Source of the DNA: a virus
Taxonomy: Duplodnaviria; Heunggongvirae; Uroviricota; Caudoviricetes
IMG/VR virus record: IMGVR_UViG_3300039008_000325
Coordinates: 1 to 49,371 of that record
Length of the DNA: 49,371 nt
Strand: one strand, 5' to 3'
Shown here one piece after another: positions 6,979 through 46,356 of this stretch. A model generated the notes under the pieces. That model was given only the letters and a program-made list of their open reading frames with translations, searched no databases and had not been told where the DNA came from. The position numbers and the translations under genes were made by a program. Every line of letters begins with the position of its first letter. The first letter of the stretch is position 1.

Positions 6979-7133
6979 TATAATTCTCCTATATTAAAAT
7001 CTATTGTAATTGTTTGAACTTGCGGTTTAACTGTTACAGGTAATGTTAATGATCCATCTTGATTAATATATGGATCATTAACTTCATAATTACCTTGCTC
7101 AATAGCTAGTACTATTAAATCAAGATCACTCAT
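6978..7133 (-). CDS. small hypothetical protein (51 aa, not in ORF track)
   Basis: MSDLDLIVLAIEQGNYEVNDPYINQDGSLTLPVTVKPQVQTITIDFNIGEL; TAATG overlaps at both ends. Confidence 0.7.
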   Translation of the reverse strand: MSDLDLIVLAIEQGNYEVNDPYINQDGSLTLPVTVKPQVQTITIDFNIGEL

Positions 7134-8002
7134 TACGTTGCCCATTGATTTCCCCAAATTTCTAAATGTAATCTATCTGAGAATTTATAACCTTTCTTTA
7201 AACAAATATCAGCAATTAACTGTTTTGTTTTAACGAAATCTTCTCCATATGTTCCACCCATTGGCATTAAGTAAACCATATCAGGTGTAATATGTAATCC
7301 ATCATCAGCTTCACAATAATCAATAAATTCTTCTACTTCAGCTACATCTTCTTCATTTGAAACTACAAATTTAAAATAACCATTGAAACAACCTTCTATA
7401 ATACCATTGGTAAATTGTTCAATAATTTCTTGTCTCCAAGCTAATTTTCTTGAATTACCTGAACAAGCCATTTTAGGACTTATTGAATAAGTGATAAATA
7501 AATCACATTCAGAACTAATCTCAGGTTTAACAGTGCCATTTGTTTCAAAAGTTACGTTATTTAAATAATGTTTTTCATTTAAAATATTAATAACTTCTTC
7601 CCAAAATTTTTGATGTAATAGTGGTTCACCACCAGTAATTACTAAATGGATATTCTCCATACTATCACCAGGAATGGTATCTATGACGTCTTTAACTAAT
7701 TCCTCAGGAGATTTTTGCGGTGAAAGTTCAGCAAATTCAGGATAAATAGAAGGATAACTATCACAACCTGTTTTTACTAGTGGTAAATCTTTTATATCCT
7801 TTACAGGATTTTTCTTAAATTCTTCAATAATATCTTTAACTTCTGGATTTGTTTTATCTACTTCAAAACAACCTTTACAAAGTCCAAAACCTGGACATCT
7901 TAACGTGCAACCAAATGATCTTACAAATACAGATGGTGTTCCAGTAAATTCACCTTCACCTTGTAAACTGTAAAAACATTCTGATATTCTAACTTTATTC
8001 AT
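7133..8002 (-). CDS. queE: 7-carboxy-7-deazaguanine synthase (radical SAM)
   Basis: ISECFYSLQGEG..G.PSVFVR..GC...C, GCDS, LVITGGEPLL, TFETNG, SISPK, RLH..IWG. Confidence 0.93.
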   Translation of the reverse strand: MNKVRISECFYSLQGEGEFTGTPSVFVRSFGCTLRCPGFGLCKGCFEVDKTNPEVKDIIEEFKKNPVKDIKDLPLVKTGCDSYPSIYPEFAELSPQKSPEELVKDVIDTIPGDSMENIHLVITGGEPLLHQKFWEEVINILNEKHYLNNVTFETNGTVKPEISSECDLFITYSISPKMACSGNSRKLAWRQEIIEQFTNGIIEGCFNGYFKFVVSNEEDVAEVEEFIDYCEADDGLHITPDMVYLMPMGGTYGEDFVKTKQLIADICLKKGYKFSDRLHLEIWGNQWAT

Positions 8003-8061: not shown

Positions 8062-8394
8062 TTATGACCAATAATCATTTATCTTTTCAGTTATTAAATT
8101 TTTAACTTTCATTAATTTATCAGCTTGTTCATCATTAAATAATTTCATATTTTCTACTTGTGAATAAATAGTGTTAATAGTATCACTTGTTAATTTTTCA
8201 ACAGCTACCATTAAATCATTGAAATTAAAATCAATGTTAGAATCTTCTGAAGACACTGTATGAGCACTATTGTATATATCATTTAATTCTTGATTAAGAT
8301 TATTAAAATTTATTATTTCCGAAACTGTTAATTTATTTTCTTTATTTGACATTCTATTTATCCCATGGAAACATAAACCATTCATCTGTTTCAC
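8062..8394 (-). CDS. hypothetical protein
   Basis: 110-aa ORF in track; true start may be internal (MSNKENK). Confidence 0.65.
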   Translation of the reverse strand: MKQMNGLCFHGINRMSNKENKLTVSEIINFNNLNQELNDIYNSAHTVSSEDSNIDFNFNDLMVAVEKLTSDTINTIYSQVENMKLFNDEQADKLMKVKNLITEKINDYWS

Positions 8395-8782
8395 TTCTTT
8401 TCATTAATTTACACATCAAACGTAAATCTAAAACGTTTGTAATTACTTCAGAATTACATATTAATGCAGCCCAATCAAATGTATAATTATGTAAAAATTT
8501 ATTTACTTCTCTATAAGTTTTACCACTATCAATTATATCTTCTACAATTAAACAACGTTTATCATTACTCACTTGTTCTTTAAAATGGTTATCATCATGA
8601 GATTTAAAATCTCTAAACGATATATTTAAAATTTTTAATGGTATTCCTAATTTATAACTTATCATAGTAGCTGGTATAACTCCACCTCTACTAATACCAA
8701 CAATATAATCATATTGTTTTCTATCATTCTTTATTGAATCACAAATATAATTAACATGTTTATCTAATTCTTTCCAATCCAT
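8354..8782 (-). CDS. type I phosphoribosyltransferase (xanthine/guanine PRT-like)
   Basis: IVGISRGGVIPA and PRPP-binding loop LIVEDIIDSGKT. Confidence 0.9.
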   Translation of the reverse strand: MDWKELDKHVNYICDSIKNDRKQYDYIVGISRGGVIPATMISYKLGIPLKILNISFRDFKSHDDNHFKEQVSNDKRCLIVEDIIDSGKTYREVNKFLHNYTFDWAALICNSEVITNVLDLRLMCKLMKRSETDEWFMFPWDK

Positions 8783-8802
8783 ATTTATCTCCTTATTAAT
8801 TG

Positions 8803-8830
8803 ATTATAACATTTTAATTATGTAAAACAA
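8803..8830 (-). promoter_or_regulatory. promoter TTGTTT-N16-TATAAT with TG extension
   Basis: Read directly upstream of the PRTase SD. Confidence 0.6.
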
Positions 8831-8844
8831 ATAATGTTTAAAAG

Positions 8845-8875
8845 GAAATGAGAGAAGATTTACCTCTCTCATTTC
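8845..8875 (-). terminator. intrinsic terminator after queD
   Basis: 11-bp inverted repeat GAAATGAGAGA/TCTCTCATTTC followed by CTTTT on the minus strand. Confidence 0.7.
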
Positions 8876-8910
8876 ACAATTGTCAGAAACTTAATTATTC
8901 AATATGGAAA

Positions 8911-9420
8911 CTATTCTTGCAATGCTGAAGAATAAATTACATCTTCATCATCCCACTTCAATAATTCTAAATCTTCAACAGTAGCTTCTGCATAACCTGT
9001 TGCTGTTTCATGAACCCTAACACATACACATTGTAATGTTTCATCTTCACCATTTTCAAATTTTGTATTCTCAATAATATCTCTGATATTTTTTAAGAAA
9101 AATATTGAATATGCTTCAGCTGATGGACTAAACGGTAATTCAATCCATCTTTCATTTTCTTCTTTCATAAATTTTCTAACACTATCCTTATCTTTATTCC
9201 AGAAATGAATAGAATGATCAAACTTATCAAGAAATGAGTTAACATTACCTTTCATAAGACCAAAGTCATACACCATAAAACCATTATCTAGTTTCTTTTT
9301 AGATTCTAGAAATACTTCTACAATATATGAGTGTCCATGAAATGATCTTGAACATCTAGTACTTGAGCAACCTCTTACAATATGAGCTGCTTCAAATTTA
9401 TATTGCTTTCTTATCTTCAT
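8911..9420 (-). CDS. queD: 6-carboxytetrahydropterin synthase
   Basis: KFEAAHIV..C...C..FHGHSY, MVYDFG, FDH, PSAE, VHETATGYA. Confidence 0.93.
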   Translation of the reverse strand: MKIRKQYKFEAAHIVRGCSSTRCSRSFHGHSYIVEVFLESKKKLDNGFMVYDFGLMKGNVNSFLDKFDHSIHFWNKDKDSVRKFMKEENERWIELPFSPSAEAYSIFFLKNIRDIIENTKFENGEDETLQCVCVRVHETATGYAEATVEDLELLKWDDEDVIYSSALQE

Positions 9421-9465
9421 AATTATTCCTTTTAATTGTTATTAGTTTAAAAATATGTTTATTTC

Positions 9466-10443
9466 TTATTTAAGATTTCTTCCAGCACTTAATACTGATG
9501 TTGCAACAATACCATCACTATGAATAGATTCTTGATTATTAACAACTATTACATAATCATTAATAGATTTATCTAAACTTTCGTTTAATTGTTCAGCAAT
9601 TCTTCTTGAAATATCTTCAACAAATGCTGGTCCACCACCTGTTTCTACAAAACAACCTTCATCATCAAAGTAACCACCCATATAAGATCTTTCAGTTACA
9701 TATTTTTCATCAGGTCTTTTTAAGATTGCAAATGTTGGTGATGAAGCACCACCTTGAGCTATTTCAACAAGATCTTCAATCCACATTGTATCATTAGAAT
9801 CAGTTAATTCAACTGTAATATCAATCATAGATTTTTGATTGTGTGCACCAAAACCAGATCTAATTATTTTATCATATAGTGATTTCTCATTTTCATCACC
9901 AATTCTTAAATTATTTAATCTATATGCTTCAGCTTCAGATATATTATTTTCTAATAAACTCATTTCTTTAGAACAAGGACATAAACTCATTTCTACTGTT
10001 TTAACAGTTAAATAATGTTTAACAATACCTTTTAACATTTTAGTTTCTAATACTACTTGAACAGGTTCATAAGAAGGTATTTTTGTCATTGGTGAATAAC
10101 CTTTGATTAAATAATCAAATTCAGTCTTAACATAAATATCATCTACACCATGTGCTTTATTAAGTTCTTCAGTAAATCTAGTAAGATCTCTAAAACCATC
10201 ACCCATTGATTCTTCATCAACAACTCTATGTAAAGTTCTTGCGATTCTAGACATATTAATACCTTTTGTATTAGCATCTAGAGAACAATATGAACTAATT
10301 GTAGCTGTAACAGTTTGAACATTCTCACCATTTCTTTCTTGTATTTTTAAAGGAAGTTTATTTCCTCTAACACCTACTTTTTCAATAGCTATTTTTGGAA
10401 AACCTTTTGTTTCCTTTTGCATATCTGGTAATTCTCTACTCAT
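9466..10443 (-). CDS. folE2: GTP cyclohydrolase IB (FolE2/MptA type)
   Basis: IEKVGV, KGINMSR, SLCPCSKE, AHNQKS, EKYVTE, FVEDISR, NQESIH. Confidence 0.93.
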   Translation of the reverse strand: MSRELPDMQKETKGFPKIAIEKVGVRGNKLPLKIQERNGENVQTVTATISSYCSLDANTKGINMSRIARTLHRVVDEESMGDGFRDLTRFTEELNKAHGVDDIYVKTEFDYLIKGYSPMTKIPSYEPVQVVLETKMLKGIVKHYLTVKTVEMSLCPCSKEMSLLENNISEAEAYRLNNLRIGDENEKSLYDKIIRSGFGAHNQKSMIDITVELTDSNDTMWIEDLVEIAQGGASSPTFAILKRPDEKYVTERSYMGGYFDDEGCFVETGGGPAFVEDISRRIAEQLNESLDKSINDYVIVVNNQESIHSDGIVATSVLSAGRNLK

Positions 10444-10487
10444 TTATTTTCCCTTTTATTAATATTAATTAATGTTTCATTGATACT

Positions 10488-10515
10488 ATTATATAGAATA
10501 ATGACACTAATTCAA
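10488..10515 (-). promoter_or_regulatory. promoter TTGAAT-N16-TATAAT upstream of folE2
   Basis: Hexamers read directly. Confidence 0.6.
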
Positions 10516-10517
10516 TA

Positions 10518-10694
10518 TTACTTTATTTCTTTCATTTCTCTTAATTTACCAAGAACATGAGTACAACGATCGATACAGATATCACAAACAGCACCTTGAG
10601 GAGCATCACCAATTAAATGTTCTACTTCTGATTTCTTTCTTCCACAAATTAAGCAAAATGCTTCTACTTCTGGTAATTCTAATATTTTACCCAT
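10518..10694 (-). CDS. stand-alone ClpX-type C4 zinc-binding domain protein (58 aa, not in ORF track)
   Basis: MGKILELPEVEAFCLICGRKKSEVEHLIGDAPQGAVCDICIDRCTHVLGKLREMKEIK matches the ClpX ZBD pattern CxxCG...EV..LI......ICxxCI..C; SD AAGGGG. Confidence 0.8.
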   Translation of the reverse strand: MGKILELPEVEAFCLICGRKKSEVEHLIGDAPQGAVCDICIDRCTHVLGKLREMKEIK

Positions 10695-10706
10695 GTTCTT
10701 TCCCCT

Positions 10707-11630
10707 TTATTGTCTCATAGTTTTTTCAGATACTGTAAATACATCTGTAAAAGAAGCTTTACCTAGTAATGATAAGTCATTACATCTAACTGGATTAATA
10801 TCTAATCCACCTCTTCTAGTGTATAAACAAGCTACTAATAATCTATCTGGTTTTAATAAATCAAATAATCTTTTGTAAATACATTCACAAATTTCTTCAT
10901 GGAAATGATTTTCCTTTCTCATAGAAACAATATATTTCATTAATGATTCTGGCGTTACAGTTTTATCACCATCAATAATAATATACACATCACCCCAATC
11001 AGGTTGATTAGTAACTCTACAATTTGATCTTAAAGCATTTGATGTAATTTGTTTAATATCAAAATTATCAACTACTTCTAAAATATTAGGATCTTCATTA
11101 TATTCATCAAAATCTATTGAAGTTACATCTATAATATTTTCAAGTTTAATAAACTCTATACCATCAAAGTTATTAATAACATTATTATCAAAATGTAAGT
11201 GAACTCTAACTGAACCACCAACTGTTTCTTTTAAATCATTTGTAATTCTTGTAATTACTTTACCTTTACATTCATCAACAGTTTTACCTATTTTTTCCAT
11301 ATTAAATGAATTTAAGTAAAGTTTCATAGATTTAGATTCTACAATATTTTTTGAATCAGATGGATAAGACCATTTCAATACACCTGTAATTGGAAATCCA
11401 TTTTCTAATAAACAAGAAAATTCATATGCATTCCAAGTATCAATACCATAAAAAGGTAAATTATCTTCTTCAATTCCATATTGAGTTCTATTTAATTCTC
11501 TAGGAACACCAACTAATAATGTTGAATCAATATGATCTGGTGTTTCATATGGTTTAACAACTGAACCATCTCCTGCACGACCAAGGTGTACACTTGCAAT
11601 ACTTTCAATTTCTTTTTTAATATTTGTCAT
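10707..11630 (-). CDS. queF: 7-cyano-7-deazaguanine reductase (bimodular, E. coli-type QueF)
   Basis: VPRELNR, DTWNAYEFS, IVESKSMKLYLNSFN, RSNCRVTNQPDWG (catalytic Cys/Asp), NHFHEEICE, YTRRGGLDINP. Confidence 0.93.
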   Translation of the reverse strand: MTNIKKEIESIASVHLGRAGDGSVVKPYETPDHIDSTLLVGVPRELNRTQYGIEEDNLPFYGIDTWNAYEFSCLLENGFPITGVLKWSYPSDSKNIVESKSMKLYLNSFNMEKIGKTVDECKGKVITRITNDLKETVGGSVRVHLHFDNNVINNFDGIEFIKLENIIDVTSIDFDEYNEDPNILEVVDNFDIKQITSNALRSNCRVTNQPDWGDVYIIIDGDKTVTPESLMKYIVSMRKENHFHEEICECIYKRLFDLLKPDRLLVACLYTRRGGLDINPVRCNDLSLLGKASFTDVFTVSEKTMRQ

Positions 11631-12192
11631 TATATCTCATTCCTTTTATATAACCTTTTTGTTCAAATTCTGATAAGTTATCAGAATTAATTCTTTTTCT
11701 TTCACCTTGTTTATTTACCACCCATATCTTATTTTTAGTAGCTTTAGATGAAATTTTTCTTCGTTCTTCTTTAGATAAACCATGAAAACCTATTTTATTA
11801 TCACGACACATTAAACCTGCAGCTCTACGATCATAATCTTCTGAGAAAATTCCCAATTTATTATTTTTTGTTGTTCGACCACCTTTTCTACCATTTTCAG
11901 CTTTTTCTTGTGAAGTAAATTTATGAAAACCTTTCTTTTCTCTATAACATTTCTCACCAGATTTTCGTTTTAATTCTAGATATTCATCTACAGGGATTTC
12001 TAATCGTGTTGATATTATTGAAGCTGCAGCATAATCTCCTTGTGACTTATGAATTTTATAATGTTCTTCAATAGTTACAAGTTGTAAATTATCGGGTTCA
12101 TTATTATCACGATTACCATCAATATGATGTATTTCCATACCTTCTGGTATTTCACGATTATTATATTTTTCCCATATTTGTCTGTAGTGCAT
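11617..12192 (-). mobile_element. free-standing HNH homing endonuclease gene
   Basis: EIHHIDGNRDNNEPDNLQLVTIEEHYKIH; C-terminal repeated GFH/GIF basic DNA-binding motifs; own T4-type late promoter. Confidence 0.85.
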
Positions 12193-12225
12193 AATTATAT
12201 TCCTTTCTATTATAAGTTATATAAT

Positions 12226-12233
12226 TATTTATA
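12226..12233 (-). promoter_or_regulatory. T4-type late promoter TATAAATA
   Basis: Exact match about 35 nt upstream of the HNH start. Confidence 0.75.
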
Positions 12234-12258
12234 ATTTACCTACGTGACCCATCTTTAC

Positions 12259-12789
12259 CTAAGTGTGATTAACTATCTCCCTTATTTGTTTAATTCTATC
12301 TTCAACTGAACCTGTAATATAATGAACTTTAATATTAAAATTTTCAATATAACTATCAAATAGTTTTTCTATATCTTTTTGAAAGTCTTTATTAGTACTT
12401 CTAACATTATCATCAACAATTTCAAATTCTGGTTTCAAATAAAACATATAATCATATAATTTATATGTATTTAAAAATATATCAAATGCTGTTTTAAAAA
12501 CATCTACACTGATTTGATTTTTCATATATAAATAGTGTGTGTAAACAATACCATCTAATGAACATCTATCTAATACACATTTTTCATGTTTAGTATTATC
12601 TAAATGAGCATCCATAATTCTTTGTTGTGTTTCATCACCACCAGCTTCATTTATATCAAAACCTTGTCTTTGTAATTTTCTAGTAATTTCTTCTTCGAAA
12701 ACAAAATCATTAAATTTTTCCATAGTTTTTAATTCATTTAATAATGTTGTTTTACCAGTAGAATGTGTACCTGTGAAAGTTAATTTCAT
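12259..12789 (-). CDS. P-loop nucleotide kinase-like protein (AAA_28 / thymidylate-kinase-like)
   Basis: FTGTHSTGKTT, LDRCSLD, YDYMFYL, DDNVR; probable start MKLTF at 12789. Confidence 0.8.
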   Translation of the reverse strand: MKLTFTGTHSTGKTTLLNELKTMEKFNDFVFEEEITRKLQRQGFDINEAGGDETQQRIMDAHLDNTKHEKCVLDRCSLDGIVYTHYLYMKNQISVDVFKTAFDIFLNTYKLYDYMFYLKPEFEIVDDNVRSTNKDFQKDIEKLFDSYIENFNIKVHYITGSVEDRIKQIREIVNHT

Positions 12790-12791
12790 TC

Positions 12792-13241
12792 CTACCCCCA
12801 TAATGTTTGTTTTTTAGTTTCAATATCAAAAATATAATCATAAGTATTAAACTCATTTAACTCTTTTTTATATTCAAACTTATCTTTAAATAATTTATAC
12901 CCGTCAGAATTTTCTTCAGATACAAAATAGAAATTAACATTATTAAATTTAGCTTCTTGATAACAAAGCTCTAATAATTCTTTACCTAAACCTTTACCTC
13001 TATGTGAATCACAAACATGTAAATAATATACTTTCAATTTATCTTTATATTTCTCATCAATAGTGTAAGCTACAAAACCTATTATTTTACCATCTTTTTC
13101 AATAATTGTTGGTTCAAACTTTTCCCAATAACCTCTATCTTCCCATAATGTTAAAAATGTTAACAAAATTGGATCAGTTATATGCTCATTTACATAAGCA
13201 TATAACTTTTCTTTATCTGAAGTTTTTCTAAAACATATCAT
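12792..13241 (-). CDS. GNAT-family N-acetyltransferase
   Basis: IIGFVAY, YLHVCDSHRGKGLGKELL (acetyl-CoA motif A), NSDGYKLF. Confidence 0.88.
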   Translation of the reverse strand: MICFRKTSDKEKLYAYVNEHITDPILLTFLTLWEDRGYWEKFEPTIIEKDGKIIGFVAYTIDEKYKDKLKVYYLHVCDSHRGKGLGKELLELCYQEAKFNNVNFYFVSEENSDGYKLFKDKFEYKKELNEFNTYDYIFDIETKKQTLWG

Positions 13242-14062
13242 TATTTTAACCCTTCTCTAAATTGAGTCGTGTTATAATTTATAAGCTCTTTTTGTTCTTC
13301 AGTCAATTTAAGATTAATTAAATCACAAACCTTAATAGTTGGTTTTGAATCAATACCATTAATTCCATCATATTTAATATCTTTAATACCTGCAATTACT
13401 GGATTAGAAGTGTCTAATGACTCAACATTACTGTTTTCATATAACTCTTTATTTTCAGTAAACTCTTTATAAAAAGAACAACCTAATAAATGATGTGGTT
13501 TATCAAAATTCCAAACTCCATCATTTTGTAATTTTTTAATTAATCTAGGTCTACCTCTATAGAATTGAGCTAATTTATCTTCATTATAAGATTCAGCTTC
13601 TTTACCAATCTCAGAATCATCTTCTTCAAAACATTTTGTATTATAAGATATAGCTATTTTATCAGCATGTTTTGACATAAATTCATAACATCTCTTAAAA
13701 TCTTCATATGTTTCACCTTGAACAACACCAATTCTAATACCTTCTAAATCACTATAATTTTCAACAAAGTTTTTCCAATTATTAATAGTTGCATCAGCAT
13801 CATCTAATACATCTGGAATAATATATTGAGTTGGTTTAGTTTCTCTAACAGCTTGAGCAAATAATTCAGCATCAAAAGCTTCTTCTAATTCAAATATAGA
13901 ATTATCTAATAATACATTTCTACCAGCTTTTACAGCATCAATATAATATTGTTTATATTCAGGAACTTCATCATAAAGGTGAACTAAACCATAATCATAA
14001 TCATTAAATTGTTTAGAATCTTCTAATAGTTCTAGTGGACATTCGTGTGATATTTGTATCAT
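13241..14062 (-). CDS. TGT-fold transglycosylase-like protein (DpdA-like)
   Basis: LLDNSIFE (cf. TGT DSGGF), IIPDV, IGVVQG, KPHHLLG, SLDTS; no TGT zinc-site CxCxxC seen; lies in a que cluster. Confidence 0.75.
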   Translation of the reverse strand: MIQISHECPLELLEDSKQFNDYDYGLVHLYDEVPEYKQYYIDAVKAGRNVLLDNSIFELEEAFDAELFAQAVRETKPTQYIIPDVLDDADATINNWKNFVENYSDLEGIRIGVVQGETYEDFKRCYEFMSKHADKIAISYNTKCFEEDDSEIGKEAESYNEDKLAQFYRGRPRLIKKLQNDGVWNFDKPHHLLGCSFYKEFTENKELYENSNVESLDTSNPVIAGIKDIKYDGINGIDSKPTIKVCDLINLKLTEEQKELINYNTTQFREGLK

Positions 14063-14071
14063 ATTTCTCTC

Positions 14072-14545
14072 CTACTTTTTATCAGAACTTCCAAATCCGT
14101 TTTCACCTCTAACTGAACAATCTTCATATTGTTTCCAATCAGCTTCATTCATATCAAACATTTGAATTACTGGTATTTTATGTGTTTTAACTTGCACACA
14201 TCCTTTACCTTTTTCAATAGTAACATCTTTATCACCAAGATTAAATACTTTGACACCTAAAGGTCCAGTATAACCGTGATCAATAATACCAGGATGCACT
14301 CTTAGATTTTTACCAATACCCATTCCAGATCTTGTAGCAAATTCTAAATACCAACCTTCTGGAATAGCAATTTTTAAACCTACCTCAACCATAGCTGAAC
14401 CACCAGCTGGTATTACAGTATCTTCGATTGCTTTAAGATCGAAACATGCACTTGTTCCTTCATAAGCTACTTCGATATCATAAGCTCTTTCATCAGTTTT
14501 AAACACACCTAATTCAAGGTCAATTTTTTGTACAAATTCTTCCAT
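14072..14545 (-). CDS. dut: trimeric dUTPase
   Basis: SACFDL, ATRSGMG, GIIDHGYTG, RGENGFGSS. Confidence 0.92.
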   Translation of the reverse strand: MEEFVQKIDLELGVFKTDERAYDIEVAYEGTSACFDLKAIEDTVIPAGGSAMVEVGLKIAIPEGWYLEFATRSGMGIGKNLRVHPGIIDHGYTGPLGVKVFNLGDKDVTIEKGKGCVQVKTHKIPVIQMFDMNEADWKQYEDCSVRGENGFGSSDKK

Positions 14546-14557
14546 AAACTCTCTCCT

Positions 14558-15040
14558 CTATCTTATGTTTTGAAATTTATTATTTAAGCCATTATATAGC
14601 ATAAAGTTTTGTTCTTTTAATATTCTATCAAATATTTCTTCATCACCAGGAATCAATTTATCTGCTGGAATATCATATTTATCTTGCCAGAATGGAGTAC
14701 ATTCTTCATTTGGTTCTAATAATTCACCATCGAATTCATTAGTGTAATGAAAATCAACTACCCAATTCTTAGCATTTTCGTTTTCATAATATAACTTACC
14801 AATATCCTGTAATCCAGGAGGTATTATTATACCTGTTTCTTCTCTAACTTCTCTCATACTTGTGTGATAGATATCTTCATCTTCTGGGTCCATTTTACCA
14901 CCTGGACAATTCCAAGTATCTTTAAACTTACCTCTATGGTGCTCAATAAATAGAAATTCATTATCTCTTTCTACAACACAAACAGTTGCTCTGATGAATT
15001 CTTTACCATCAAATACTTCTACTTCATACTCTTTTTGCAT
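14558..15040 (-). CDS. Nudix hydrolase (MutT-like)
   Basis: Nudix box PGGKMDPEDEDIYHTSMREVREETGI. Confidence 0.9.
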   Translation of the reverse strand: MQKEYEVEVFDGKEFIRATVCVVERDNEFLFIEHHRGKFKDTWNCPGGKMDPEDEDIYHTSMREVREETGIIIPPGLQDIGKLYYENENAKNWVVDFHYTNEFDGELLEPNEECTPFWQDKYDIPADKLIPGDEEIFDRILKEQNFMLYNGLNNKFQNIR

Positions 15041-15183: not shown

Positions 15184-15792
15184 TTATAATCCAAAATACG
15201 GGTTATTTTTAGTTTCAAATGTATTAATTACAATCATATCACCAAAACCTTCTTCACCAAATATATTAAATAATACGTTTGCATCTAATTTAACACTATC
15301 TTTGAATTTAGTAGATGAAATATTATGATTACCATCTACAAATAATGGTGATAACATATTTCTAAATAAATATAATTTATAGTTATCATACATTATACAA
15401 GCAAATGATCCATCAAAGTTATTAACATTTTCAAAAGATTCTAACATAGAATTATGTATATGATCTGTATCCCAATCTTCTTTAACCGTTTCCATATATT
15501 CATCTTTTAATATACCATTATGCCATAATAAAGATCTACCTATTTGATTAGGATGTACTTTTGAACTACCTGATGTTGGAGCTTGAACATGCCCAACATA
15601 GAAGTATTCTTCATTTTCTCTTAATGAAGGTATTTTATTTTCATTAAATAAACCATCACCTTCAAGTCTAACTTTTGGTGTTAGCTCTTTATCAAATATA
15701 GTAATGGAATATTTACTATTACCTCTATATTGATTTAATTTAGCTAATTCTATAAATTTATCTTTATTTCGACTTGCAAATATTCCACACAT
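15184..15792 (-). CDS. class II (Ntn) glutamine amidotransferase domain protein
   Basis: N-terminal MCGIF, YRG, GHVQAPT, VHP, LWHNGIL, WDT, DGSFA, LFRN. Confidence 0.88.
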   Translation of the reverse strand: MCGIFASRNKDKFIELAKLNQYRGNSKYSITIFDKELTPKVRLEGDGLFNENKIPSLRENEEYFYVGHVQAPTSGSSKVHPNQIGRSLLWHNGILKDEYMETVKEDWDTDHIHNSMLESFENVNNFDGSFACIMYDNYKLYLFRNMLSPLFVDGNHNISSTKFKDSVKLDANVLFNIFGEEGFGDMIVINTFETKNNPYFGL

Positions 15793-16530: not shown

Positions 16531-17262
16531 TTAGACTTTCCAGTCTATCTCTATACTATATTTTGCAGTATCTTTTGTTTTTGCTTTCATAAAATTCATT
16601 ATTCTTTCAGCACAACTAGGACACTTTCCACAACTTTCACCTTCTTCATTAGGATTATAACAAGTTAATGTCAAACTATAATCTACTCCTAATTCATTTC
16701 CAATTTCAATTTCATCAGCTTTAGACATATGTTTAAAAGGTGCTTCTAAAGTAATATCATGCATTCTATTTAATCCAGAAACTACATTCATATTAGTTAA
16801 GAAGTCTTCGGTACAATCCCAATATCCATATGAATCATGAACTTGTAATCCTGTAAATACATGAGCACAATTATTTGCTTGAGCAAATGAGAATGCAATA
16901 CTATTTAATATCATATTTCTATATGGTACTTCTGTAACCGGTTGTGGATCACCTAACACTTCTTCAATAGTTGGCATTTCAACATCTGTACCAGATATAT
17001 TTGCACAAACATTTTTAACTACATCTCCTAAGAAACTAATATCAATTAATCTGTGTTGAATACCTAGCTTATCACAAGTCTTCTTTGCTAATTCCAATTC
17101 TATTGATTGTTTTTGCCCATAAAAATATGATAATGCAATTACATTGTCTTTACCATATTTGTTTGCTAATAAATAAGTTAAAATTGTGCTATCTAAACCA
17201 CCAGATAAAACACTTACTACTTTTTTACCTTCTGCTAATACAGGTAATGATACTTTTTCCAT
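16531..17262 (-). CDS. queC: 7-cyano-7-deazaguanine synthase
   Basis: SVLSGGLDS, YGQK..IEL, VPYRNMI, YWDC, TLTCY, CGKCPSCAER; probable start MEKVS at 17262. Confidence 0.95.
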   Translation of the reverse strand: MEKVSLPVLAEGKKVVSVLSGGLDSTILTYLLANKYGKDNVIALSYFYGQKQSIELELAKKTCDKLGIQHRLIDISFLGDVVKNVCANISGTDVEMPTIEEVLGDPQPVTEVPYRNMILNSIAFSFAQANNCAHVFTGLQVHDSYGYWDCTEDFLTNMNVVSGLNRMHDITLEAPFKHMSKADEIEIGNELGVDYSLTLTCYNPNEEGESCGKCPSCAERIMNFMKAKTKDTAKYSIEIDWKV

Positions 17263-17287
17263 ATCCCTCTCCTCTTTATTTTTCACT

Positions 17288-30770: not shown

Positions 30771-31325
30771 TTATCTATAGTGTACACCATCTTTAATTAC
30801 ACTCTTACATCTACTAGCATATCTCCAGTTATAAGGTTGTTGAACTAAGACAAATCTATGACCATAATTTTTTATTTCATTAGGATTATCTTCAATAATT
30901 AAATGATATCTAGAATAATCCTTTTGATCATCCATATCACAGAATTTAATCATGCAAGGATATTTATCTAATTCCATATATTTCTCTAAAAATTTTCTTT
31001 TAGATGTTCTATGTTTTACAGGTGTCTTAGTATAAAATGTTACAAATAGTTGATTACGACTTACCTTATGAAAATTAATTAAATCTCTCTTAATAAGTTC
31101 TCCATTTTCAGATAGTACTAAATCATCATAGAATGTTTCATCATTTTCAAAATCATCCCAGAATGTATCTAGAAATTCTTGATCATAACCATGCTTTTTT
31201 AACACATCTGTTATTTTATATTCATCAACATCTTCTGGTGTTATAGATAATTTTTTATGTTTGAAATATTTTTCAGCTATCTCAACTAATACTCCATCGA
31301 CGTCAATTGCTATATTAAAAAGCAT
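30771..31325 (-). CDS. HAD-family 5'(3')-deoxyribonucleotidase-like protein
   Basis: IAIDVDGVL, YTKTP, IIEDNP, QPYN. Confidence 0.8.
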   Translation of the reverse strand: MLFNIAIDVDGVLVEIAEKYFKHKKLSITPEDVDEYKITDVLKKHGYDQEFLDTFWDDFENDETFYDDLVLSENGELIKRDLINFHKVSRNQLFVTFYTKTPVKHRTSKRKFLEKYMELDKYPCMIKFCDMDDQKDYSRYHLIIEDNPNEIKNYGHRFVLVQQPYNWRYASRCKSVIKDGVHYR

Positions 31326-44757: not shown

Positions 44758-46356
44758 TTATTCCTCTTTTAAATCATCTGGAATTACAACATTTACAACT
44801 ACATCTGTAGTTAATAATTCACCTGTAACAGATATTGCTGATTCCAATGATGTTAATATAACCTTTACAGGATCAATAATACCATTTTCAAATAGGTTTT
44901 CAATTGACGTTTTAAATACATCTACACTGTAATTGTGATCACTTGTTTCTTTATATTTATCTAATACTTTTTCGATATAATACTTTACATCTAATCCAGC
45001 ATTAGTTAAAATTTGTTTGAAAGGTGTTTGAATTGCATTGTAAATAATTTTTTCACCATCACTATTATTATCATTTATAAGTTGTTTAGAAACATGTAAT
45101 AATGCTCTTCCACCACCTACAACGATACCTTTTTCTTTAGCAGATCTAACTGCACCTAAAGCATCATCAACTCTATCTTGTCTTTCTTTTTGTTCAATTT
45201 CTGTTCTACCAGCTACTGATATAACACCAACTTTACAAGATAATCTATTTAATCTCTTTTGTAATTGATCAAGATCATAAGCGTGTGTTGTTTGACCTAT
45301 TTGATTTTTAATCTTATCAGTTAAAGCGTTTAGAGCATCTTTATTACTTTCTTTATCTGTAATAATAATACTGTTTTTAAGAGTAGTTTCAATTAACTTA
45401 GCTGTACCAATATGTTTATCAGTAATACTTTCTAATGTATCACCAACTTGAGGATCAATCACTTCACAACCACATAATACAGATAAATCTTCCATATTAG
45501 CTCTTACACTTAATTGTGTTCCAGTTAATTGAACAACATTTACATTTAAGTTAACAGCTTTCTTATTCTTTAATAGATTATCAACAGCTGTTTGACTAAT
45601 ATTTGTTGTAAATATAGTTAAAGCTTGACCTGTCGTCATACAATTTTCTAATAAAGCTTCTAAAGGTTGTAGTGAATTAATTGGTGCTAATGTTAATAAA
45701 ACATGACCATTTTTATATTCACCTTTACCTTGTGACCAATTAGTGGTAAAGTGTTCTGAAATGTGACCATTATCTAATTGATACCCATCAATTACTTTAT
45801 AGCTAGTTTCACCATCAAGAGCTGCTTCTATTGTAATCGGAGAACTGTCATCTACAGCACTAAACGCATCAGCAACCACTTTACCTAGTTCTTTATCATT
45901 GTTAGCAGATACTTTAGCAACATTAAAGATTTGTTCTTGTGTTGTTACTTCAGTTTTAATCTTATCTAATTCTTCAACGATTTTATTATATGCATCATCA
46001 AGTTCATTCTTTAGATCTCTAACATTTTTATTTTCTTTCATTTGTTTTAACGCTTCAGTGTAAATACCTTGAGCTAAAACTGTTGCAGTTGTTGTACCAT
46101 CTCCAGTTGTATCTGCGGCTCTTGATGCAACACTTTTAATTAATTGTGCACCGATATTTTCGATAGGATCTTTTAATTCAATAGCTTTAGCAACTGAAAC
46201 ACCATCCTTTGTAGAAACATGTCCATATGGAAGTTTTAACATTACATTTTTACCTGATGGTCCTAATGTTGTTTTAACTGTATTAGATATTTTATCAATA
46301 CCTTTCTTTAATGTTTCTTGTGGTTGAAATTTAATATCACTATATACTTTAGCCAT
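44758..46356 (-). CDS. groEL: phage chaperonin GroEL-like
   Basis: TLGPSGKNV, TKDGVSVA, GDGTTTA, RVDDAL, GGG, IIDP.KV. Confidence 0.95.
   Translation of the reverse strand: MAKVYSDIKFQPQETLKKGIDKISNTVKTTLGPSGKNVMLKLPYGHVSTKDGVSVAKAIELKDPIENIGAQLIKSVASRAADTTGDGTTTATVLAQGIYTEALKQMKENKNVRDLKNELDDAYNKIVEELDKIKTEVTTQEQIFNVAKVSANNDKELGKVVADAFSAVDDSSPITIEAALDGETSYKVIDGYQLDNGHISEHFTTNWSQGKGEYKNGHVLLTLAPINSLQPLEALLENCMTTGQALTIFTTNISQTAVDNLLKNKKAVNLNVNVVQLTGTQLSVRANMEDLSVLCGCEVIDPQVGDTLESITDKHIGTAKLIETTLKNSIIITDKESNKDALNALTDKIKNQIGQTTHAYDLDQLQKRLNRLSCKVGVISVAGRTEIEQKERQDRVDDALGAVRSAKEKGIVVGGGRALLHVSKQLINDNNSDGEKIIYNAIQTPFKQILTNAGLDVKYYIEKVLDKYKETSDHNYSVDVFKTSIENLFENGIIDPVKVILTSLESAISVTGELLTTDVVVNVVIPDDLKEE

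Follow-up and report, generated by a model that had tools for sequence, protein, structure and literature searches.

A DpdA3 gene cluster in an uncultured T4-like virus and a possible nucleotide-level route to complete guanine replacement

DpdA3 and the known systems

Among the phages that combine a TGT-fold guanine transglycosylase with a Que pathway, those having DpdA1 or DpdA2 (phage 9g, Vibrio phage nt-1) substitute only a part of their guanine (0.1–30%), whereas the three DpdA3 phages that have been measured, CP220, phiST and immuto_2-6A, have 100% of G replaced (PMC10516641). As the mechanism by which phages achieve 100% replacement, post-replicative exchange was assigned in the same paper (2023) without DpdA3 activity being shown, and a modified-dGTP route has been mentioned as proposed for the Campylobacter phages (PMC6884629). 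Here we analyzed a stretch of 49,371 nucleotides (the window; bases 1–49371 of the IMG/VR virus record IMGVR_UViG_3300039008_000325), in which que genes lie together with a DpdA3 gene, a kinase gene and other putative nucleotide enzymes. The source record (137.7 kb, 26% GC, estimated completeness 77%) is that of an uncultured T4-like virus. The locus is a DpdA3 cluster with a probable new acyl variant.

The open reading frame (ORF) of DpdA3 (13241–14062, minus strand), which the first-pass annotation had overlooked together with those of a GNAT acetyltransferase (12792–13241) and an HNH endonuclease (11617–12192), has no Pfam match. Over its full length the protein shares 44% identity with the Flavobacterium phage immuto_2-6A protein that is annotated as a DNA guanine transglycosylase and 42% with the CP220 protein, and the DpdA3 hidden Markov model matches CGPG_00065 of phiST (3e-20). 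The AlphaFold2 model (pLDDT 92.5) is a TGT-fold TIM barrel; its best structural match is an archaeosine TGT (Z 17.7, root-mean-square deviation 2.9, 232 aligned), and against the DpdA structure 7ui4 it gave Z 17.3. Across 108 homologues the residues D53, D84 and D217 do not vary; judged by eye, they lie in TGT-like motifs and may correspond to the TGT catalytic residues. Profile comparison with DpdA1 by hhalign gave no alignment, and the CxCxxC zinc motif was not found in the DpdA3, DpdA1 or DpdA2 groups.

The presence of DpdA3, together with the full substitution in the three measured DpdA3 phages, makes complete guanine replacement well supported by family membership. Such completeness had been raised earlier as a possibility, and we now regard it as very probable that all G of this phage DNA would be replaced by a modified base. 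The words CATG (z −10.6) and GATC (z −8.3) are much rarer than expected in the record, though its DNA is predicted to be G-modified, and palindrome avoidance showed no clear contrast there between AT-only and G-containing sites.

Among 185,579 prokaryote genomes, DpdA3 was present only on 10 contigs of metagenome-assembled genomes (L369–L378), which are probably phage sequence in bins. About one tenth of the top homologues (P0030, P0043, P0050, P0074 and others, and L370) are fusions of DpdA3 with the formyltransferase DpdN. At L202 (3474–4295) DpdA3 was called as two ORFs of 113 and 137 aa, by assembly error, frameshift or a split gene. At L396 (6075–7785) a DUF5591 protein is encoded after it, and the flank contains two QueC genes but lacks QueF; this phage may make another fully replacing base.

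Compared with immuto_2-6A, the window has the same order of DpdA3, acyltransferase, kinase and QueF, a phosphoribosyltransferase (PRTase) of the same family and a full preQ1 pathway. It differs in having GNAT and not DpdN, FolE2 and not FolE1, and a trimeric dUTPase-fold protein (Dut) plus a Nudix hydrolase and not a MazG/PRA-PH protein, and its phage is a PolB T4-like virus whereas immuto_2-6A is a PolA phage. The dADG system of CP220 (Campylobacter Firehammerviruses) is alike in having a kinase directly downstream of DpdA3 and a Dut of the same clade; however, its genes are dispersed, its pathway ends before preQ1 and it has no Nudix gene. The DpdA1 and DpdA2 systems share the TGT fold, the Que pathway and often a PRTase, and in nt-1 a glutamine-amidotransferase-like (Gat) gene lies beside QueC, but the kinase was found within 3 kb in 0 of their 124 loci.

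The kinase and the level of base exchange

The DpdA3-linked kinase (12259–12801, minus strand; PF13521, E 3e-18; phrog_2107) is a P-loop nucleoside/nucleotide kinase of the AAA_28 family. A tblastn search of 50,697 phage records gave the kinase in 18, which are precisely those that gave DpdA3, and the two were adjacent every time. Among the loci that had a 3-kb flank on both sides, it lay within 3 kb of DpdA3 in 88 of 96, but in none of the 68 DpdA1 or the 56 DpdA2 loci. Counted by clusters at 70% identity, 18 of 23 DpdA3 clusters had the kinase, or 20 of 23 if any small P-loop protein was counted. The link is present in PolA, PolB and PolC phages, and in phiST a different P-loop kinase directly adjoins DpdA3, the gene there having been called unknown. 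The word ‘kinase’ is absent from PMC10516641. The earlier suggestion of a dedicated kinase is thus supported, as this protein tracks DpdA3 and not DpdA1 or DpdA2, and among the sequence evidence it is the kinase that carries the argument for a putative nucleotide-level route.

In fold, the kinase most resembles the NadR ribosylnicotinamide kinase (Z 17.8), followed by thymidylate and deoxyguanosine kinases (Z 14.9), so that the substrate may be a nucleoside or a monophosphate, and both readings stand. The record also encodes a gp1-like dNMP kinase (79982–80518) and an NDK (85751–86191), both read from motifs. With these, the gene set for a kinase route to a modified dNTP is present, the specificities being putative.

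We consider it plausible, though unproven, that the base is swapped on free nucleotides before replication, with a probability of roughly 0.6. From the gene identities, folds, linkage and controls, which were established directly, we infer all the substrates and the order of the steps. PreQ1 would be made from GTP by FolE2, QueD, QueE, QueC with Gat, and QueF. A pyrophosphatase, most likely Dut with Nudix as a possible helper, would convert dGTP to dGMP, which would both remove the canonical substrate and feed DpdA3. DpdA3 would exchange guanine for preQ1 on dGMP (or deoxyguanosine), and GNAT may acetylate the aminomethyl group, either prior to incorporation or once it has taken place. The DpdA3-linked kinase, the gp1-like dNMP kinase and NDK would then lead to the triphosphate, to be incorporated by an ordinary family B polymerase, and the liberated guanine would be turned back into GMP and GTP by the PRTase. 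Taken as a whole, this explanation (preQ1 synthesis, nucleotide-level guanine replacement and the inferred flux) is in our estimate somewhat better than an even bet. The strictest form, in which DpdA3 acts on free dGMP supplied by a Dut-fold dGTPase (of a clade that the inosine-DNA Fletcherviruses also have) and a dedicated kinase acts next, all before replication and with N-acetyl-preQ1 for every guanine, is unlikely to hold in all its parts.

The scheme resembles that of the PurZ0 Z-genome phages Wayne, Ghobes and Hiyaa, in which an enzyme of dUTPase fold both provides a purine dNMP and clears away the canonical dNTP, and in which the base of the dNMP is exchanged by a transferase (PMC12884076). 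There, DutZ converts dGTP and dATP to monophosphates with its dUTPase activity kept, and DmtZ is a natural dNMP base-transferase. The PurZ0 phages differ in that A is replaced and not G, DmtZ has the NDT fold and not the TGT fold, and DutZ belongs to a separate clade.

The earlier proposal stood with regard to complete replacement and, at the probability given above, to its nucleotide level, but its parts had to be reassigned: DpdA3 would fix the base, and the roles given to the PRTase, the Nudix enzyme and a HAD protein were not supported. Inspection of the polymerase pocket, which had been suggested as a check, showed ordinary motifs A and B by eye in the family B polymerase (130847–133450 of the record; best matches cyanophage gp43, 34–38%, with no cultured relative close). 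As 7-deazaguanines do not inhibit polymerases, the pocket is not decisive and is unlikely to be informative.

If the scheme is true, DpdA3 would be a TGT-fold enzyme working on a free nucleotide, a candidate would be at hand for the dGTPase expected in dG-free phages, and the base would be the ninth 7-deazaguanine of DNA. The comparison narrows the testable set to DpdA3, the kinase and Dut, and removes the PRTase and Nudix as two decoys.

Partner enzymes and rival explanations

Dut (14072–14545, minus strand; PF00692, E 4e-17) and Nudix, the two dGTPase candidates, flank DpdA3 here, and neither is universal among DpdA3 loci. Among the phage records, the only matches to Dut at E<1e-12 were 52 Campylobacter phages of both dG-free genera, five Hiyaa-type Streptomyces phages and one Mollivirus. 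The Fletcherviruses replace all dG by dI (PMC13091555), and Hiyaa has its copy two genes away from PurZ. In the tree, the window protein grouped with CP220, CP30A and the DpdA3-linked Duts (97/95) and the DutZ rows formed a clade of their own (100/98); DutZ is therefore a precedent for the window Dut and not its family. Two members of the subfamily that were looked up in reverse both lay in DpdA3-kinase-Que clusters. Of 82 viral Dut loci, six were closest to the window Dut (about three lineages), and each of them had Que-pathway genes in the flank; the other 76 included one with QueD, one with a kinase and none with DpdA3. A Dut-clade protein is fused to the kinase at L168–L170, and the CP220 Dut follows a second kinase of the same AAA_28 family.

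All five dUTPase motifs are recognisable in the window Dut; the Asp-Arg of motif 4 is replaced (GKGxxQ) across the subfamily, an Arg that many generic phage Duts also lack. By analogy, Dut may hydrolyze dGTP, for which we would put the odds slightly short of even, and it is a better candidate for this activity than Nudix. PF00692 is lacking in immuto-like phages and phiST, which have a MazG-like protein that could be a dUTPase or a MazZ-like dGTPase.

Some observations on other Dut loci are added here. L395 and L397 have a DpdA3-kinase-Dut cluster in a PolC phage, and the L395 Dut translates only with TGA read as Trp. In the inosine-DNA Campylobacter phage CP30A (L381, 2332–4438), a 422-aa ‘dehydrogenase’, gp012, lies two genes from the Dut-clade gene and is a candidate dI-pathway enzyme; it had no Pfam or PDB match that would bear out a reading as GMP reductase. 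An HD-AAA_33 protein beside the CP220 DpdA3 was considered as a DatZ analogue and rejected, as it occurred in one of the first 82 loci and its look-alike in the source record is far from the cluster.

The Nudix hydrolase (14558–15040, minus strand; PF00293, E 2e-13) resembles MutT/MTH1, and so a weak dGTPase activity is possible. However, it was present in one of the 96 DpdA3 loci, this one only, no full-length phage homologue was found, and CP220, immuto_2-6A and phiST have no PF00293. It cannot then be the general dGTP sink, and appears to be an accessory gene. The HAD-type, NT5C-like protein (30771–31325, minus strand), once read as a deoxynucleotidase of this pathway, carries the motif DxDGV in its N-terminal part, matches NT5C only below threshold (E 0.008) and has no PDB match. 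Its gene is unlinked, about 13 kb beyond the cluster among replication genes, where it adjoins a gp46/SMC-like gene. Among the 82 loci fetched first, DpdA3 loci in nearly every case, no homologue was found, and a search in other DpdA3 genomes, which had no positive control, was empty. Its membership in the pathway is without support.

The PRTase (8354–8782, minus strand; PF00156, E 2e-15, over cut-off) has a type I PRTase fold with the phosphoribosyl pyrophosphate (PRPP)-binding motif. Its best PDB matches are Gpt/purine PRTases, and it could be aligned with 1vdm, Sulfolobus GpT and E. coli XGPRT. CP220, phiST and immuto_2-6A each have a homologous PRTase gene. We found a PRTase within 3 kb in 55 of 96 DpdA3, 24 of 68 DpdA1 and 18 of 56 DpdA2 loci, and none in the flanks of the DpdA3 clusters L164, L166, L168 and L169. 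Since it also lies beside DpdA1 and DpdA2, the PRTase does not discriminate between the models, and this distribution speaks against its earlier assignment as the enzyme of base entry. Any transglycosylase frees one guanine per swap, so that salvage to GTP is the simplest role, and the Gpt-like PRTase of the window probably recycles the guanine released by the transglycosylase. In the DpdA1 phages L310, L315, L337 and L362 the PRTase is apparently fused to FolE, which suggests that freed guanine is channelled back into the pathway.

The strongest alternative to nucleotide-level exchange is that DpdA3 exchanges all the G of DNA that has already been replicated. The kinase would then salvage modified nucleosides or nucleotides from DNA turnover, the PRTase would recycle guanine, and the dUTPase and Nudix would do house-cleaning. 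We consider this a serious but distinctly less probable explanation. Post-replicative insertion is the model proposed for DpdA3 in PMC10516641, and it agrees with the TGT/DpdA fold that DpdA3 retains, with the NadR nucleoside kinases, i.e. salvage enzymes, being the nearest folds of the kinase, and with the five recognisable motifs of Dut. It agrees also with the MazG-like protein found in place of PF00692 in immuto-like phages and phiST, as a MazG-like relative cleaves dUTP (PMC5122711).

Besides the published model, several observations weigh against exchange at the nucleotide level. The median net charge per 100 aa was −3.4 for DpdA3, −2.8 for DpdA1 and −1.2 for DpdA2, and neither charge nor pI discriminates DpdA3 from the DNA-acting DpdA1 and DpdA2. 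The DpdA3 sample behind the linkage counts was rich in immuto-like phages and the DpdA1 sample was nearly one lineage, and no kinase was seen in the fetched flanks of the DpdA3 loci L041, L119, L132 and L141, all of which are fragments. There is no dGTPase family that all DpdA3 loci share. The window Dut itself stands outside the DutZ clade in the tree, its subfamily yielded no purine-specific residue signature, and it is the only PF00692 gene in the 77%-complete record. Together with the published model, the weightiest point is that work by Crippen from 2019 is said to report no dADG phosphates in CP220-type infections. The ADG nucleoside was detected in such infections (PMC10516641).

Two results, however, speak against post-replicative exchange: a salvage kinase that could be dispensed with should not turn up in ~92% of the DpdA3 loci yet in 0 of 124 DpdA1 and DpdA2 loci, and the DNA-acting DpdA1 and DpdA2 reach ~30% substitution at most. 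The fully substituted phage DNAs (hydroxymethylcytosine, hydroxymethyluracil, dU and Z) are made at the nucleotide level, which also counts against it. DpdA3 activity could not be shown in an E. coli assay where DpdA1 modifies DNA (PMC10516641); inactivity of DpdA3 alone in E. coli is expected if partner genes are required. A route by way of the PRTase, in which it would join preQ0 or preQ1 to PRPP, the ribonucleotide then being reduced and phosphorylated and dGTP destroyed by Nudix, is very improbable: the PRTase homologues of the three measured phages and an MTH1-like, so purine-dNTP-directed, Nudix two genes from DpdA3 would fit, but the PRTase also occurs with DpdA1 (FolE-fused) and DpdA2 and is missing in the flanks of several DpdA3 clusters, the three measured phages are without Nudix, and DpdA3 would be left without a job.

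Identity of the base and the remaining genes

The NADPH-dependent QueF (preQ0 to preQ1; 10707–11630, minus strand; PF14819 and PF14489 over cut-off; TIGR03138, E 2e-70) is bimodular, and preQ1 is therefore expected. In immuto-type phages, whose DNA holds formyl-dPreQ1, DpdN lies between DpdA3 and the kinase. In the window this formyltransferase slot is occupied by the GNAT protein (12792–13241, minus strand), a candidate preQ1 acetylase by its gene position and the loci of its homologues, so that the base may be acetyl-preQ1. Each of the four GNAT proteins most similar to it was seen to be encoded between or next to DpdA3 and the kinase, and in three cases next to QueF as well. DpdN was found in none of the fetched flanks of nine GNAT loci, and no formyltransferase (PF00551) was found in the 77%-complete record. 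From these gene contexts, acetyl-dPreQ1 is our best guess, at a shade above even odds; the word ‘acetyl’ is absent from PMC10516641.

It is also possible, if somewhat less likely, that the base is plain dPreQ1, or dG+ or dADG made via Gat and QueC, and that GNAT has another target. A Gat-like protein is present, and nt-1, which has a Gat homologue, contains dPreQ0, dADG and dG+. One more distant GNAT homologue lies outside any Que cluster, and at L369 a GNAT fusion is present as well as DpdN. Against another target for GNAT stand the close linkage of its nearest homologues to DpdA3, the kinase and QueF, and the lack of DpdN and PF00551 noted above.

Other acyl variants were seen at related loci. 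The immuto-like L067, L069 and L080 (L069, 6918–8812) have, in place of DpdN, a 508-aa FkbH-like/GNAT fusion and a glyoxalase-like gene, possibly for a different acyl group on preQ1. In L169 and L170 (L169, 10797–13167), a FolD-like gene lies beside DpdN and a kinase-Dut fusion, a plausible supply of formyl-tetrahydrofolate.

All the named ORFs of the cluster are present, every one on the minus strand, and PRTase, kinase, dUTPase and Nudix genes, each with a Pfam match, are indeed interleaved with the que genes as had been described. The order in the reading direction is QueC, then after a gap Gat, Nudix, Dut, DpdA3, GNAT, kinase, HNH, QueF, FolE2, QueD, PRTase and QueE. QueC, the preQ0 synthase (16531–17286), matches PF06508 (E 7e-56) and TIGR00364 over cut-off, and the class II Gat-like protein (15184–15792) has its homologue in nt-1, where it adjoins QueC. 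The HNH endonuclease between the kinase and QueF (11617–12192; PF13392, E 3e-14) is a passenger. FolE2 GTP cyclohydrolase (9466–10443) matches NF010200 (E 2e-56), QueD (8911–9420) matches TIGR03367 (E 6e-17), and the radical SAM protein QueE (CDG synthase; 7133–8002) matches the QueE TIGR models with E 6e-15 to 2e-12, below cut-off.

Directly after the PRTase gene lies an orphan ORF of ~96 aa (8062–8352) without Pfam match; from the start that is listed, a GTG at 8394, it would overlap the PRTase gene, and an ATG is present past the PRTase stop. At 8790–8870, QueD is followed by a terminator-like hairpin and the PRTase gene is preceded by a sigma70-like promoter, which suggests separate transcription; overall, the promoter scan was at chance level. 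Read from the sequence, GroEL is encoded at 44758–46356 of the window, and an anaerobic-type ribonucleotide reductase with its activase at 70248–73610 of the record.

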